Assembly (NCBI GenBank): GCA_963765895.1
Contig: CAVXZB010000023.1
Span: 192,001 to 256,000 of the forward strand
DNA from: an uncultured Nitrososphaeraceae archaeon
GTDB taxonomy: Archaea; Thermoproteota; Nitrososphaeria; Nitrososphaerales; Nitrososphaeraceae
Length of the DNA: 64,000 nt
Direction of reading: 5' to 3'
Positions 24,495 to 48,926 of this stretch are shown in pieces; position 1 is the first letter of the stretch; every line of letters begins with the position of its first letter. A model generated the notes under the pieces. It was given only the letters and a program-made list of their open reading frames with translations. It was not told the DNA's origin and did no database searches. The translations under genes were made by a program, and so were the position numbers.

Positions 24495-25076
24495 ATAGGC
24501 TTTTCACAGTGTGTGTAAATCCCTGGACGACAATCTTTTATATTTTTATAATATTTCCTCATGATATACATCTATAGGAAGATGCAAAATATTTGGGTAT
24601 TTAGAAATCACAAATTGTGTTAGAATTCGCCCCTTGCAAAACAGAGAACGTTTTAAACTTTGTACAAGGTGGGGTATGATCACCTGACATGCGTTTACAC
24701 GTCTTTTGATTAGGAAAAATAACAGTTATTTCGAAATAGATATTGCAGAAGTTGATTGAATTTGTATTTCTTTTCATTCATGATACACCTTTTAACCCAA
24801 ATTATTTTTAGAATATTGTCCCATAGCGAGGCAGATGTAATCCACGTTACCAGGTCCTCTGGAAATAATAACTTAATTTGAGGATTAAACTGATGGGAAA
24901 GATTTAGAACAGCTTTCACTTTAGATAAAAGAATAGATCATCTGCCCAGAGCTTAAAAGTAACTTGGATAACAAAACTTATTTGTTACTGATTCCGATTT
25001 ACTTTATCTGATTACGGCTCTTAATTGTAGGCATATGCAAAGATTAAATAATGCTCTGCAGTTGCTATATGGGCTA

Positions 25077-25478
25077 TTGACCCAGTTTAAAGTCATTATT
25101 TCTGATTCTAATGGTAGGAGCCAAACGCAAGAGCTAAAAGATGTAGCAGCACAGCCATTTTTGGGCTCTAAGATTGGAGATTCTATTGATTCTTCTACTG
25201 TCGGGATTACTGGAGGTAAGATCAGGATCACTGGTGGAAGCGATAGGTCAGGTACACCTATGCGTCCAGATATACATGGTGGAGTTAAGAAATATGTCCT
25301 TTTATCAAAAGGGGTCGGCATGCGAGATATCAAAGAGGGCAATAGAATTAGAAAGTTAGTAAGAGGAAATTTAATTACCGAGGAAATCTATCAGTTGAAT
25401 TGTATGTTGCTCGACAGTAATTTGCCCGATATATCAATAAATCAAGATAAACCCGCAAAGGACGACACAAAGCAATAA
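25077..25478 (+). CDS. rps6e: 30S ribosomal protein eS6
   Basis: FKVIISD, LGSKIGD, ITGGSDRSGTPMR, RKLVRGN..QLN; probable TTG start ~27 nt after TATA. Confidence 0.95.
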   Translation: MTQFKVIISDSNGRSQTQELKDVAAQPFLGSKIGDSIDSSTVGITGGKIRITGGSDRSGTPMRPDIHGGVKKYVLLSKGVGMRDIKEGNRIRKLVRGNLITEEIYQLNCMLLDSNLPDISINQDKPAKDDTKQ

Positions 25479-25681: not shown

Positions 25682-26946
25682 TTGCATTGGAGAGATACAC
25701 TACCTGACTGGTATATCAAAGAATACGGATATCAACCAAATATAAATATAGGGACGTCCGGTCACGTCGACCACGGAAAGACCACCTTAGTAGAAGCTAT
25801 AACTGGAGTCTGGACAAGTGCGCACAGTGAGGAGTTAAGAAGAGGCATTACCATTAAGGTCGGCTATGCCGACGCAGCATTCTATAAATGTCCACAATGT
25901 CCGCCACCCGATTGTTATTCGACTAATCCGTCATGTGCACGATGCGGAGGAAAAAGCGAGCTATTGAGGGTTGTCAGCTTCGTTGACTCGCCTGGCCACG
26001 AAAGCCTTATGGCAAACATGTTGTCAGGATCTGCGCTTATGGATGGAGCGATCTTAGTCATTGCTGCAAATGATCGAGTTCCCCAACCTCAAACCCGGGA
26101 GCACTTGCTTGCACTCCAGGTTCTAGGCATAAAACAAATAGTGGTTGTTCAGAATAAAGTGGATCTAACTGATTCTGAAAAGGCAGTCGAGAATTATGAA
26201 GAAATAAAGGAATTTGTAAGAAAAAGTGTAGCAGAGACGGCTCCCATAATTCCGGTATCCGCGCAGCACAAAATAAATATCGATGCTTTAATAGAAGCCA
26301 TCGAGAGCACAATAGAAACTCCTGTTCGCAAGAAAAATGCAAGCGCGATAATGCACGTCTTGCGCTCGTTTGATGTCAACAAGCCTGGAATCCGAATTAA
26401 ACAAGTCAAAGGAGGAGTCATTGGTGGTGCACTGGTCCAAGGAGAATTTAACATAGGGGACGAAGTAGAAATTCGACCAGGTTTTTTTGACGAGAAGAAA
26501 GGTAAATATGAACCAATTAATTCTACGATCGCGACATTAGGCACAGGGGCTGGTTTGGTAGATACTGTGAAACCAGGAGGACTCATTGCTCTCGGGTACT
26601 AAATTGGATCCAACGTTCGTAAAGAGTGATTCCCTAATCGGATCCGTTGTTGGAAAACCTGGAGAGTTACCCAAGGATATTGAAGATATAGTTGTTGAAG
26701 TACAGCTGTTTGATACCGCAGTAGGTACTCAAGAATTAGTTAAAGTTGATCCCATCAGAGTTAAGGAACCGTTGAGACTAAACATAGGTACAGCGAGCCA
26801 CATTAGGAACGGTTGCAAATTCTAGAGATAACAGAGTAGAGATAAAATTGAAAAAACCCATTTGCATGATGTCTAAAAGTAGAGTGGCTATTAGCAGAAG
26901 GATAACGGATAGATGGAGACTAATAGGAGCGGGTATAGCCTCATAG
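25682..26946 (+). CDS. eif2g: Translation initiation factor aIF2 gamma; frameshifts near 26595 and 26794
   Basis: GHVDHGKTT, EELRRGITIK, Zn knuckle, DSPGHE, NKVD; third frame ends RWRLIGAGIAS*. Confidence 0.97.
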
Positions 26947-27294
26947 CAAGGTGACTATCTTAACCTAAGTGGTTTTCCGTAGAACAGGTTACACTACGCG
27001 AATTAGCATTAGATCACACCTCTTTATTTGACCTTAATTATTAGATTGGTATTTCCATCCGTTGTCTAAGGCGTAGTTAAAGCTAATATAAAGTTGAGAT
27101 TCTAGTTTAGAAATCGGGTGACGTCTCGTAAAATCGGTAGTTGTTGCTTAGAGGCCCGAGTGACATTATCGATGTTCGCGTACTCTTCTTCTGGTAGGTT
27201 TCTTAACTCATTAAAAATCGATTTTCCTTGCCGATGATGTTGTCTCAAGTTATGAGAAAGTTTTTAATCTGGAATCAATCCGACATAAAAGATA

Positions 27295-28392
27295 ATGAGA
27301 GTTCTGGATATAGTGAGGACGAAAGTGGTTAGCCTTGATCCGGATGAGACAGTAGGCAAGGCTTTGAATATAATGTCTAAAAACAAGATTCATCAAATAC
27401 CGATTATCGATGGCGATTCAATATATAGGGGTATGATATTTGCGAAACAATTTGTGAGTATAAATGCCCTGCCTGACTCCAAACTCAGGAGCTTTATTTG
27501 TAATACTCCAATCCTTAATGAAAATGAGCAGATTGAAAAATGTGCCCAACTTATGATCGTCAGTGCGAATAGGGCATTACCATTACTCGATAACGGACGA
27601 CTTATAGGCCTAATTAGTGAGACAGACATTCTGAAGATTTCAGATTTCGGACATGCCACTGTAGATGAAGTGATGTCTGGTGCAATTGTAATTGAGGAAC
27701 AAACTACCCTAGGTAATGCGCTGTCTAAGATGCGTCGATACAATATATCGCGTCTTCCAATAATTAACACCAACGGAGTCCTAGTTGGTATCATTAACGC
27801 ACTGGACATAGCTGAAGTGATTTCCACTCCTCGGGAAAGGTCAACTAAGTCTAAAGGAATCGGTAGTCTAGCTACAATTAGAGATCTCGAAGTGAAATCC
27901 ATTATGAAACGCGCAATATCTGTCGAAAGGCGTACGAGAGTAAATGACATTATAGGCCATTTCAACAATAATGAAGAAGTAGTCATTGTCGGAGATAGAA
28001 GGCCCATAGGAATTGTCACTCCCAAGGATATCTTGGAACTGATTCTTCCCAGGATCAACAAACCTACTATTCATGTGGCTCATCTAGTAGATGAAGTCAC
28101 CCGTTCGGAGATCGAGACACAAATGCACAAATTTTTAGAAAAAATCCAGGGAAAATTGGGAGATATTCATCTAGCAGTGGTTTACGTCGACAAACATAAG
28201 ACCCGGAAATATTCGATGCGGGCCAGGTTATTTACTGATAAGGGAGTTATTAATGCAAAAGGTGTTGCGTTTGATCCCGTGAGCTCATGTAAGGTGATGA
28301 TATCCAGACTCGATAGACAAATAAAATCGGAACATAGTCAAAGAGTTAGAGACAGGAAGCATGCAAGATCAGCAAGAGGCACCATGAGATAG
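27295..28392 (+). CDS. Four CBS domains fused to a C-terminal HPF/RaiA (S30AE)-like domain
   Basis: Two CBS pairs (HQIPII, RALPLL..GLISETDI, SRLPII..GIINALDI, GIVTPKDI), then a beta-alpha-beta-beta-beta-alpha pattern ending SRLDRQIK. Confidence 0.8.
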   Translation: MRVLDIVRTKVVSLDPDETVGKALNIMSKNKIHQIPIIDGDSIYRGMIFAKQFVSINALPDSKLRSFICNTPILNENEQIEKCAQLMIVSANRALPLLDNGRLIGLISETDILKISDFGHATVDEVMSGAIVIEEQTTLGNALSKMRRYNISRLPIINTNGVLVGIINALDIAEVISTPRERSTKSKGIGSLATIRDLEVKSIMKRAISVERRTRVNDIIGHFNNNEEVVIVGDRRPIGIVTPKDILELILPRINKPTIHVAHLVDEVTRSEIETQMHKFLEKIQGKLGDIHLAVVYVDKHKTRKYSMRARLFTDKGVINAKGVAFDPVSSCKVMISRLDRQIKSEHSQRVRDRKHARSARGTMR

Positions 28393-28397
28393 ATAAG

Positions 28398-28528
28398 CGC
28401 AGATGAGGAGATTCGAACTCCTGATCGCCAACAGGCGAATCGGCTTGCTCTTAGCCCCGTAACTCAAGGCCGACGCATTATTATGTTCTTGCTGTTTTGA
28501 GCACAAAAGACCACTCTGCCACATCTGC
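28398..28528 (-). tRNA. tRNA-Ser(UGA) with two introns (D-loop ~28 nt; canonical 37/38, 17 nt)
   Basis: GCAGATG/CATCTGC acceptor with G73, TCGGC CT TGA G|..|A GCCGA, long variable arm TCGCC-TGTT-GGCGA, T-arm AGGAG TTCGAAT CTCCT. Confidence 0.88.
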
Positions 28529-28933
28529 ACGATTGATATCGTTAGCTAACTTACTATTATATGTTAACAAACAGATTGTTAGATATCCTGTCATATTTAC
28601 AATATCTAATATACGATTTACTTTCGTAAAGATGACAAGATACAAAAGCACGACCATAAAATAATAGATCTCTTCAAGACATATTTGACCTTTATCAATT
28701 GTACCTATAAGATTTGGACACGGTTTTGGGAATCTACTTCATCTACATGCAAAGCAAAATATTCTCACTAGCGAAAACAAGATTGTTTATCTTTTTGATT
28801 TTGATTTTAATTTGCACTCAACCCCGCGTTGTTTAATAATGTTCAGTATAGAGACATTTAAAATGTTAGTTTCTGTTTCGAATTGACTTATTTAGTAACT
28901 GCTTCAATCTAGCAAGGTCATTCATAAAAGAGG

Positions 28934-28976: not shown

Positions 28977-29039
28977 TTATTTTTTTGTCTTTTTTTCTCC
29001 CTTCTTTGCAGACTTAGCTGCTTTCTTCTTTGCCACCAT
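28977..29039 (-). CDS. 20-aa Lys/Ala-rich microprotein MVAKKKAAKSAKKGEKKTKK
   Basis: Clean ATG-TAA ORF, TTTAAATA box ~30 nt upstream, hairpin downstream. Confidence 0.65.
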   Translation of the reverse strand: MVAKKKAAKSAKKGEKKTKK

Positions 29040-29129: not shown

Positions 29130-29801
29130 CTAATCATTCTTCGTTAGGATTTTTGTTTCGCAAATCTTCACAAGATTACTAAATGTCATAGCATCTTGTT
29201 CCGAACCCACGATTGTTCCATAATGCATAGGTACTACAAACTTTGTAGGTCTTATAAGTTCGTTTGTTGCCTTCGCCGCCTCTTCTGCAGTCATAACATA
29301 TGTTCCAGATACCGGGACCAGAGCAATATCTGGTTTCGTGAATTCCATTTCTGGGATCATGTCACAATCTCCTGCGTGATATATTCGATACTTATCTAAG
29401 ACAATTATAAAACCTAGCTTATTATCTGTCTTAGGGTGGAAGCTCTTGTTTGTATTATAAGCAGGTACGCCTTCAATGAGGAAATTTTGGACCGTCAGCT
29501 TTTCACCTGGTTTAACCCCCCTAGATTCATGTGGAAGATCTGCTAACTTTTCAATACACTCGTCAGAGGCTAATATGTTAGTTTTTGGGTTCAAGATTTC
29601 CTTCAAATCCTCTAGGCTAAGATGGTCAAAGTGGTTGTGAGAAATAAGAACTATGTCTGCGTCATGGGCATTTTTTCTTGATTCACTCAACTTATATGGA
29701 TCGATGTAGATAGTTTTTTTTTCTTTATCATTTTTTGCAAAAACAATTTTGAATCCATCATGACCAAGCCAGGTTATCTGACAGGAACCATTTTGTAACA
29801 T
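29130..29801 (-). CDS. Metallo-beta-lactamase-fold hydrolase (UPF0173-like)
   Basis: WLGHDGF, IDPY, SHNHFDH, YHAGD, PMHYG. Confidence 0.92.
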   Translation of the reverse strand: MLQNGSCQITWLGHDGFKIVFAKNDKEKKTIYIDPYKLSESRKNAHDADIVLISHNHFDHLSLEDLKEILNPKTNILASDECIEKLADLPHESRGVKPGEKLTVQNFLIEGVPAYNTNKSFHPKTDNKLGFIIVLDKYRIYHAGDCDMIPEMEFTKPDIALVPVSGTYVMTAEEAAKATNELIRPTKFVVPMHYGTIVGSEQDAMTFSNLVKICETKILTKND

Positions 29802-29834: not shown

Positions 29835-30224
29835 TTAATATTGAATGTTATTAGCTACTATTATTCGATTTTTGCTAAGTGTAAAAACGAGAATTTCAGT
29901 TTCAATGAGCTTTCGCTTTAAATTCTTGTCAAGTGTTGCAGCAGCACATCTATTGGTCCTAACATAGTCAACTATCGCATCATCTACAGGATAAGATCGC
30001 TTGAATTTAACTAATCCAAATCTAGAATGAGCAATTTTAATAGCAGTCCTTGCAATCATGGATCGTTTTGGCCCCGCCACATCTTGAATATGCTTTAATT
30101 CGTCCAGTACCAGGTCTGGAACTAAGAAACACAATCTGCCCAATTCACTCTCAATATTATCCAATCGACTTATTCGATTAGAGACAAGAACCATTAGAAA
30201 ACTTGTATCGCAAATGACCTTCAC
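29835..30224 (-). CDS. PIN-domain nuclease (Fcf1/Utp24-like)
   Basis: VICDTSFLM, VPDLVLDEL, VDDAIV, ATLDKNLKRKL. Confidence 0.88.
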   Translation of the reverse strand: MKVICDTSFLMVLVSNRISRLDNIESELGRLCFLVPDLVLDELKHIQDVAGPKRSMIARTAIKIAHSRFGLVKFKRSYPVDDAIVDYVRTNRCAAATLDKNLKRKLIETEILVFTLSKNRIIVANNIQY

Positions 30225-48338: not shown

Positions 48339-48926
48339 TTAAGGGTGAGCTGATTGCATATGTTTGGAGAGAACCTCTTTATCACCATACTCTTTTTGAC
48401 AGTGAGGACATACTAACATCGCTTTTTTATCTTTTAGTTGGGTTGATGCAAAGGGGTTCAGTATACACAACGATGTCGTCGCAGTTGCTGCATTGATTGT
48501 CTCCATTGCCGCTTTTTCCATTTTCGTCATTATGTCATCTCGGCTCACGATACCCAAGACGCTATTCGAAGTTGTTACAACAAGCTGTCTAATAATATGT
48601 TTTTCCATAACAGAGAGGGCGTCTACGATAGACATTTCAGGAGGAATAGAGATTACAGGAGCAGACATTACTTCCTTAATCTGTATCTTGGCTGGTGATT
48701 TGTGAATCGCAACCACTTTAAAAAGTACGTCCGTTTTTGATACTAATCCGATGACTTGCTCGCCATGATCTGATACAAGGATGGAACGTACGAGGTTGTC
48801 TTTCATTGCAGTGATCGCGTCCGCAACTGTTCTAGACTGCTCTAAAATGATGACATTCGAATTCATTGCAAATGAGACAGGCATGGATAATAGAGAAGAT
48901 CGATTGACATTTTTATCTTCTATCAC
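48339..48926 (-). CDS. CBS pair fused to C-terminal C2H2 zinc finger
   Basis: Two CBS motifs; CPHC..Y.....LSKHMQSAH. Confidence 0.88.
   Translation of the reverse strand: MIEDKNVNRSSLLSMPVSFAMNSNVIILEQSRTVADAITAMKDNLVRSILVSDHGEQVIGLVSKTDVLFKVVAIHKSPAKIQIKEVMSAPVISIPPEMSIVDALSVMEKHIIRQLVVTTSNSVLGIVSRDDIMTKMEKAAMETINAATATTSLCILNPFASTQLKDKKAMLVCPHCQKEYGDKEVLSKHMQSAHP

Follow-up and report, generated by a model that had tools for sequence, protein, structure and literature searches.

The HibA/AHA proteins, a family of archaeal ribosome hibernation factors, were described in 2025-2026 by Madru et al. (PMC13324472, Nat Commun 2026), Souza et al. (PMC13728122) and Nissley et al. (PMC13454478). Our subject is a gene at positions 27295..28392 (+ strand) of a 64,000-nucleotide stretch of DNA, called the window below, from an uncultured Nitrososphaeraceae archaeon (GenBank assembly GCA_963765895.1, contig CAVXZB010000023.1, positions 192,001 to 256,000). 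The gene, referred to here as hibA, very probably encodes the Nitrososphaeraceae ortholog of HibA/AHA. An earlier note on this DNA, made from the sequence alone, had proposed a ribosome hibernation factor gated by adenylate charge in an ammonia-oxidizing archaeon. The genome carries amoA (on contig 24), and the host is therefore an ammonia-oxidizing archaeon, as that note supposed.

HibA was found on 70S ribosomes of Pyrococcus abyssi, where its C-terminal domain lies in the mRNA/tRNA channel of the 30S subunit (PMC13324472). On the 50S subunit, the CBS module was seen in three positions, and in one of them a loop formed by residues 190-207 fills the peptidyl-transferase center (PTC). According to the same paper, 6 μM HibA strongly inhibits translation in vitro, whereas its N-terminal domain by itself fails to do so, and deletion of hibA from Thermococcus barophilus doubles the lag and leaves ~60% fewer 70S ribosomes. 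HibA binds AMP, ADP and ATP with dissociation constants (KD) of 12, 65 and 113 μM, respectively. The authors report HibA in 47% of 4026 archaeal genomes, count Nitrosopumilaceae among the lineages in which they identify no hibernation factor, and assign stand-alone HPF/RaiA-like proteins mainly to DPANN and Nitrososphaerales.

The Haloferax volcanii protein, named AHA, carries two AMP molecules at the junction of CBS3 and CBS4, at the sites that are regulatory in AMPK-gamma and beside a loop termed loop 3 (PMC13728122). Deletion of AHA causes stationary-phase defects, with loss of viability, of 32 ribosomal proteins and of 70S particles. That study counts 3160 homologs in 2723 of 6968 GTDB species, included A0A977ICN8, a protein of Nitrososphaera viennensis, among its search queries for the HPF domain, and places AHA and SriA as sister large-subunit binders. 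It offers adenylate gating as a hypothesis only. The third paper (PMC13454478) finds HibA in 2951 (42%) archaeal species and sets apart in its analysis a 'SriC-short' clade of Nitrososphaerales. The earlier note had mentioned CBS-HPF fusions as recently proposed hibernation factors of Euryarchaeota; such a family has indeed been published, and it reaches beyond Euryarchaeota, to 42-47% of archaeal species or genomes in these surveys.

The hibA frame starts with ATG and comprises 365 codons followed by a stop. It is open throughout, with no indels relative to a 97%-identical relative (L029), and its translation contains all motifs quoted in the earlier note (PTIHVAHL, EIETQMHKFLEKI, LAVVYVDK, KYSMRARLFTDKGVINAKG and FDPVSSCKVMISRLDRQIK). 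An identical protein is recorded in a public collection, as a member of a 90% cluster with 103 members. The genome itself (4.9 Mb in 88 contigs, 88% complete, with the window on contig 23) holds a single full-length copy, which also gives the only PF02482-like match (19 bits) in a six-frame search. We conclude that hibA is a real, intact gene. The expectation that annotation would record no more than a CBS protein is borne out by NCBI, where the ortholog of Candidatus Nitrososphaera gargensis (WP_148681537.1, 57% identical) is a 'CBS domain-containing protein'. It fails for IMG, where proteins of the same 90% cluster are named 'CBS domain-containing protein/ribosome-associated translation inhibitor RaiA'.

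A phmmer search against all PDB chain sequences aligned residues 3-358 of the protein, in one stretch, with residues 6-382 of chain 9sr9_H (392 amino acids; E 3.3e-23). The PDB labels this chain 'Dehydrogenase', which is a mislabel; the chain is P. abyssi HibA, and entry 9SR9 is tied to PMC13324472. By this alignment, the protein is homologous to a characterized HibA, collinearly and across both modules. The same search returned 9l96_a, a 406-amino acid 'CBS domain-containing protein', in two stretches (1-185 and 189-350; E 1.3e-27). That chain is acidic and haloarchaeal-looking, and a full-text literature search for PDB 9L96 found no paper.

For residue conservation and modeling we used an alignment (A2) of 126 sequences, namely 116 hand-picked full-length library representatives, nine of 19 genomic orthologs, and the query. 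The full-length AlphaFold2 model obtained with it has a mean pLDDT of 93.0 and a pTM of 0.76. Its C-terminal domain (28060..28389) contains strand 258-262, helix 267-288, strands 291-300, 306-314 and 317-325, and helix 328-364, an order that reproduces the HPF/RaiA topology and ends in a long helix. When the full-length model was compared with PDB structures by Foldseek (entries up to 2026-04-08), the rows shown contained CBS tetrads alone and no HPF or HibA chains. The C-terminal domain was therefore modeled separately, from residues 254-365 alone and 19 orthologs (pLDDT 82.3), and this second model has the same order of secondary structures.

Comparisons with the C-terminal model consistently return the HPF family, in agreement with the HPF/RaiA pattern that the earlier note had read after the four CBS domains. 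In Foldseek, ranks 1-38 are all HPF, RaiA/YfiA, plastid pY, MPY or RafH (best E 2.4e-6, TM 0.70/0.77). In VIA-align, which ranked 48,161 chains, the top 16 belong to the HPF family (Z 12.4-9.2, rmsd 1.9-4.4, 91-106 residues aligned), and the next chains are unrelated dsRBD folds with Z ≤8.2. A profile of the C-terminal domains of the 19 orthologs, searched against PDB sequences, gave ten matches at E ≤10, nine of which are HibA, HPF or RaiA; they include HibA (9sr9_H, E 0.0013) and Escherichia coli HPF (4v8h_AX, E 0.0044, aligned over 18-105). The likeness of the C-terminal domain to the HPF family far exceeds chance. The earlier note had named the lack of an S30AE/HPF fold in this domain as grounds for dropping its reading, and these comparisons give no such grounds.

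The domain is also basic, with 24 K/R versus 12 D/E overall and 11 K/R versus 3 D/E over the final 38 residues, which form the terminal helix and tail (residues 328-365; 28276..28389) whose basic character had been noticed earlier. Family-majority residues are kept at K305, Y306, S307, R309 and R311 of a KYSxRxR strand (82-104 of 126 sequences), and an LDRRIKSEHSQ motif in the terminal helix is conserved among the 19 orthologs. Two of these, from other Nitrososphaeraceae genera (L022 2263-2640 and L024 2263-2634), have an additional C-terminal extension ending in the acidic GADEEI, which the other 17 aligned orthologs lack.

The N-terminal CBS tetrad (residues 1-253; 27295..28053) is recognized by the Pfam CBS model in four stretches (E 2.7e-36), the best of which is 123-176. 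NCBIfam yielded partial CBS-type matches alone, far under their cut-offs. In the full-length model, the tetrad consists of four beta-alpha-beta-beta-alpha units with pLDDT >90, whose bounds are approximate: CBS1 (~1-57), CBS2 (~62-117), CBS3 (123-176) and CBS4 (~200-251). The best Foldseek matches of that model are SriA/B, MJ1225, SSO3205, AMPK-gamma, SriD and Dri (E 2.6e-19 to 1e-15). The canonical motif G-h-h-(S/T)-x-x-D, whose Asp and S/T positions we take to be ribose- and phosphate-binding, is intact in CBS4 (T242, found in 98 of 126 aligned sequences, and D245, found in 120) and in CBS2 (D111, found in 109). CBS3 retains D171 (93 of 126) and has Asn in place of S/T. The CBS1 site is degenerate in the query and in the family, where only 33 of the 126 sequences have Asp at position 52. 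The CBS3/CBS4 pockets would most likely bind AMP, ADP or ATP.

CBS3 is followed by a loop of residues 177-199 (STPRERSTKSKGIGSLATIRDLE; 27823..27891), the predicted equivalent of the HibA 'PTC loop' and of AHA 'loop 3'. Its residues 180-197 (RERSTKSKGIGSLATIRD) stand, ungapped, opposite the PTC loop of P. abyssi HibA (190-207) in the 9sr9_H alignment. The model's confidence is poorest at residues 181-190 (pLDDT 60). Among the 19 Nitrososphaeraceae orthologs, P179, R182 and K185 never vary, and R180 and S186 seldom do. As judged from alignment and model together, an extended loop after CBS3 is present, as in HibA/AHA.

P. abyssi HibA (PDB 9SR9 series; also the T. barophilus protein) thus has in common with the query the collinear homology, the long loop after CBS3 and the basic C-terminal extension. 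They differ in loop sequence, save for a Pro-Arg that both have where the aligned loop begins, and in their hosts, one a mesophilic soil ammonia oxidizer and the other, P. abyssi, a hyperthermophile. AHA of H. volcanii belongs to the same family under a second name; it is alike in its AMPK-gamma-like tetrad (Foldseek E ~1e-17) and in the Asp and Thr of the CBS3/CBS4 nucleotide pockets, which the query retains. Bacterial HPF, RaiA (YfiA, protein Y) and plastid pY resemble the C-terminal domain in fold (TM 0.6-0.8, Z 9-12) and, as the E. coli HPF match shows, in a weak but specific profile similarity; by analogy, the A/P site of the 30S subunit would be the expected location. Unlike these proteins, to which identity is ~8-23%, the query falls under the Pfam cut-off, is fused to a tetrad of the 50S-bridging type, has a longer terminal helix, and lacks both the long-HPF dimerization domain and an RMF partner. 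The AMPK-gamma/MJ1225-type proteins share the disk-like four-CBS fold and, by prediction, the adenylate pockets, whereas the query has an HPF domain attached and no kinase partner, and its role would be ribosomal rather than kinase regulation.

The remaining relatives are SriA-D/ARC-A/P and Dri (PMC13454478; PDB 9ZNF, 9ZNG, 9ZNI and 9E6Q), which have a homologous tetrad; the first Foldseek rank of the full-length model is 9znf_4 (E 2.6e-19). They have no HPF domain and act as pairs (Sri) or as a double tetrad (Dri), whereas the query is a single tetrad with an HPF-like domain. Contig 3 of the same genome encodes a stand-alone CBS tetrad of 297 amino acids (L007 832-1722, - strand), with further CBS genes at most 8 kb away. 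Among its top PDB hits, the sole full-length match is 9zni_6, from the Methanosarcina acetivorans SriC-SriD ribosome complex (E 8.2e-21, residues 27-292 to 17-279), which is second by E-value behind a partial MJ1225 match. The genome therefore holds both hibA and a SriC-like gene, although co-occurrence of hibA and sri is reported as rare.

Relatives of hibA are numerous. A library of 1.84 billion proteins gave 4380 matches at E ≤0.001 and 679 at E ≤1e-10; most of the best 150, which were listed, span both modules, from residue 1 to ~355. A full-protein search at E ≤1e-10 found matches in 28 of 41 genomes. All six genomes of the same genus match (77-97% identity), as do 22 of 24 of the same family and 5 of 16 from other families of the same order; the same search gave no match in the remaining two genomes of the family (G007 and G017). 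Full-length close orthologs, with at least 51% identity, occur in 19 of the 24 same-family genomes, one of them with an internal TAA, and three further matches are distant (23-35% identity). The best 80 related loci in species-representative genomes are labeled Nitrososphaeraceae, Nitrososphaera, Candidatus Nitrosopolaris, Nitrososphaerales, Nitrosopumilales or Thermoproteota metagenome-assembled genomes. Architecture, fold, collinear homology, family-wide conservation and single genomic copy are established by these data.

Over the order, the C-terminal profile matches 18 of 151 genomes (families f1, 11 of 23; f4, 5 of 9; f13, 1 of 23; none in the other 17 families), always within open frames of 366-489 amino acids. 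PF02482 matches ten of the 151, most strongly in frames 370-436 amino acids long, and five of the ten pass the cut-off; one weak second match lies in a 231-amino acid frame with two stops. Neither query revealed a short stand-alone HPF frame in the 151 Nitrososphaerales genomes, both being insensitive to divergent domains and the frames not being gene calls. This result does not contradict the stand-alone proteins reported for the order in PMC13324472, and query sensitivity, gene calling or sampling could account for it. Instead of a close ortholog, four genomes (G009, G010, G125 and G154) have a divergent CBS-HPF-like frame of 407-413 amino acids, 23-25% identical over residues 9-352 and matching PF02482 at E 0.004-0.007. 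Judged from these frames, two HibA subtypes may exist within Nitrososphaeraceae.

A TATA-like sequence, tttttaat (27261..27268, + strand), lies ~30 nucleotides upstream of the ATG and is a possible promoter of a leaderless or near-leaderless mRNA. Twenty public sequencing runs, nine of them soil metatranscriptomes, contain at least half of the sampled words of positions 26900-28700. Four of these nine were compared, and in each a single contig covers the gene, starting at 27306, 27307, 27306 or 27320 and ending within 28575-28700 (17-20 differences in 1270-1394 bases, ~98.5% identity). Each of the four runs also has a further contig that ends within 27013-27193, and no contig of the four runs covers 27205-27265. 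Contig starts, uncovered spacer and tttttaat together fit a transcript that begins close to the ATG, and they hint, weakly, at expression of hibA in soil.

Several findings weigh against the identification of hibA as an archaeal hibernation factor gene, or limit how far it can be carried. Binding to 70S ribosomes and inhibition of translation are known for the proteins of P. abyssi, T. barophilus and H. volcanii and for those of no ammonia-oxidizing archaeon, and identity to the characterized proteins is low. The curated PF02482 (Ribosomal_S30AE) cut-off of 23.7 bits is missed, at 16.1 bits for residues 270-348 (E 0.019) and at 19 bits in the genome search. The protein is therefore not a member as Pfam defines it, and we class it as a remote relative of bacterial HPF within HibA/AHA. 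Orthologs from sister genera of Nitrososphaeraceae pass the same cut-off (24.0-33.9 bits), and 49 of the 126 full-length homologs match at E ≤0.01 (best 5.8e-7). The lone C-terminal sequence found only 9sr9_H in the PDB (E 0.0097); bacterial HPF came into reach with the 19-ortholog profile.

Other points on this side concern mechanism and context. The query has 365 residues versus the 392 of P. abyssi HibA, and its linker before beta1 and its beta2-beta3 loop are shorter; its ribosome contacts therefore need not equal those of HibA. According to PMC13324472, neither AMP nor ATP clearly changes the binding of HibA to the ribosome, and loop deletions do not significantly alter inhibition in vitro. 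The rpS6e/aIF2-gamma neighborhood, which had been presented as a translation cluster, is found at the six closest of the 80 best related loci, all of one genus, and differs at the other 74. Contigs from RNA libraries are no proof of transcription, as such libraries may hold DNA, and the four study codes may represent one campaign.

By analogy with its characterized relatives, the protein would bind ribosomes, inhibit translation and preserve ribosomes. The basic HPF/RaiA-like domain would enter the small subunit's mRNA/tRNA channel, as its homologs from P. abyssi and H. volcanii suggest, and the CBS tetrad would settle on the large subunit and cover the A/P (or P/E, or E) tRNA sites, where the long loop after CBS3 may reach the peptidyl-transferase center. 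A single chain would thereby bridge both subunits and block translation, and idle 70S ribosomes would be kept assembled and protected under energy or substrate starvation. In this host, ammonia limitation would be the most plausible kind of starvation.

The idea of a candidate hibernation factor has gained from the published family, whose members inhibit translation and preserve 70S ribosomes (PMC13324472, PMC13728122) and to one of which the query is collinear. The proposed gating by adenylate charge has fared less well: that adenylate binding toggles ribosome binding on and off is hypothetical even for characterized members. Within the hibernation-factor explanation, a serious competitor, to which we give somewhat less than an even chance, is that the CBS tetrad is a steric plug of the large subunit and a bridge, with the nucleotide as a structural ligand instead of an energy-charge switch. 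Regulation would then lie elsewhere, for example in partner sequestration or in competition with tRNA or mRNA. PMC13324472 reports that 5 mM AMP or ATP leaves HibA conformations and their distribution mostly unchanged and describes native HibA complexes without bound nucleotide, both of which favor this proposal, as does the degenerate CBS1 site of the query and its family. The similar levels of AHA in exponential and stationary phase (PMC13728122) are also in its favor; regulation would therefore be post-translational. A switch is favored by the approximately tenfold higher affinity of HibA for AMP over ATP (KD 12 versus 113 μM; PMC13324472), by the two AMP molecules at the AMPK-gamma-type regulatory sites of AHA near loop 3 (PMC13728122), by the ATP-driven release of related ARC proteins (a preprint, as cited in PMC13728122), and by the conserved CBS3/CBS4 Asp and Thr residues of the query.

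An improbable alternative is that hibA encodes a generic CBS regulator, transcriptional or metabolic and of the HhpR or MJ1225 type, in which the HPF-like tail would have been turned to a different partner, RNA or protein, and would have no action on ribosomes. The tetrad by itself does resemble the non-ribosomal AMPK-gamma, MJ1225 and SSO3205, the weak partial NCBIfam matches include HhpR (44.9 bits versus a cut-off of 520), the PF02482 score is below its cut-off, and dsRBD-like folds rank next behind the HPF family (Z 6-8). Co-purification of HibA with replication and recombination proteins in Thermococcales, as reported in PMC13324472, points the same way. However, homology with ribosome-bound HibA is collinear over the full length, the HPF family outscores every other fold by 1-4 Z units with the whole domain covered, and conservation extends to the basic tail and to the KYSxRxR strand. 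The CBS module of HibA alone fails to inhibit translation (PMC13324472), and the HPF domain is therefore the active anchor. Least credible is the view that the open frame is a product of faulty assembly, or a gene in decay, in a sequence rich in errors. Despite the frame breaks in essential genes of this assembly (aIF2-gamma, amoA and CDC48), the 365-codon frame of hibA is open and free of indels versus L029, intact orthologs of 365-366 amino acids with 77-97% identity occur in six of six same-genus genomes, and the identical protein is on public record in its 103-member cluster.

Upstream of hibA lie rpS6e (25035..25478, + strand) and aIF2-gamma (25682-26945, + strand), both identified with Pfam. 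Downstream follow a tRNA gene (28397..28528, - strand), a gene with the metallo-beta-lactamase fold (29130..29801, - strand), a PIN_9 gene (29835..30224, - strand) and a fragmented CDC48 gene (30618 onward, + strand). The neighbors named in the earlier note, rps6e, aIF2-gamma and a PIN nuclease, are thus real, the last being separated from hibA by the tRNA and the metallo-beta-lactamase-fold gene. The gene order recurs in a second genus (G013, whose HibA is 51% identical) as far as the beta-lactamase-fold gene, and no PIN_9 match was found within the 12 kb examined there. At 52 of the remaining 74 loci there is a match to a glucose/sorbosone dehydrogenase gene, which in one relative (L039) sits divergently upstream of hibA. 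With synteny confined to 6 of 80 loci and G013, the translation-gene cluster is specific to certain lineages and hardly strengthens the case for function, and we rejected gene neighborhood as functional evidence. Elsewhere in the window, a second CBS-domain match (48525-48860, - strand) lies in a 198-amino acid open frame, with 30% identity to query residues 69-174.

Compared with the 97%-related L029, the aIF2-gamma gene, the only copy in the genome, carries one extra nucleotide at 26594 and one at 26795, which break it into three frames; this relative and four others have an intact frame of 420-429 amino acids. The amoA gene is likewise split over three frames. Most likely, the assembly is rich in indels and the broken genes are not true pseudogenes.

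The tRNA gene next to hibA was missed by ARAGORN with default settings and by Rfam at its gathering score. It is a class II tRNA interrupted twice, by an intron in the D-loop and by another that follows position 37; in an alignment with four relatives, the exons are invariant and the intron blocks variable. After removal of two introns, Ser(UGA) was by far the commonest ARAGORN call (13,113 variants, versus 4,215 for the next call), and the tRNA-Ser named in the earlier note is therefore genuine. In its intron mode, ARAGORN called Pro(GGG) for this gene and, at the corresponding place in G013, Leu(AAG); we rejected both calls and adopted a two-intron Ser(UGA).

Between the tRNA and the beta-lactamase-fold gene is a lysine-rich open reading frame of 20 codons (MVAKKKAAKSAKKGEKKTKK; 28977..29039, - strand). 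It is retained, with conservative changes only, in the five same-genus relatives whose locus reaches far enough, and a 25-codon version occupies the same place in G013 (L131 6663-6740), despite an indel-rich spacer. The frame may encode an unannotated micro-protein.

Archaeal ribosome hibernation was unknown until 2024-2026, and HibA/AHA is now its most widespread factor. The family was thus already known, and the gene described here is an ordinary, intact ortholog, which raises the same question that the published papers already state, namely whether adenylates switch binding. It adds the data point that soil Nitrososphaeraceae carry the full fusion as a single HPF-type gene. A bolder scenario, which we consider unlikely, is that in soil ammonia-oxidizing archaea an expressed, leaderless or near-leaderless hibA works alongside the SriC-like tetrad, and its product responds to the AMP:ATP ratio and parks ribosomes when ammonia is exhausted. 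If so, two CBS-type hibernation systems that are reported to be mostly mutually exclusive would act jointly, and the long starvation tolerance of these archaea would have a molecular basis. Cultivable relatives, such as Candidatus N. gargensis, own orthologs, and the gene could be useful for studying how ammonia oxidizers persist under substrate starvation.

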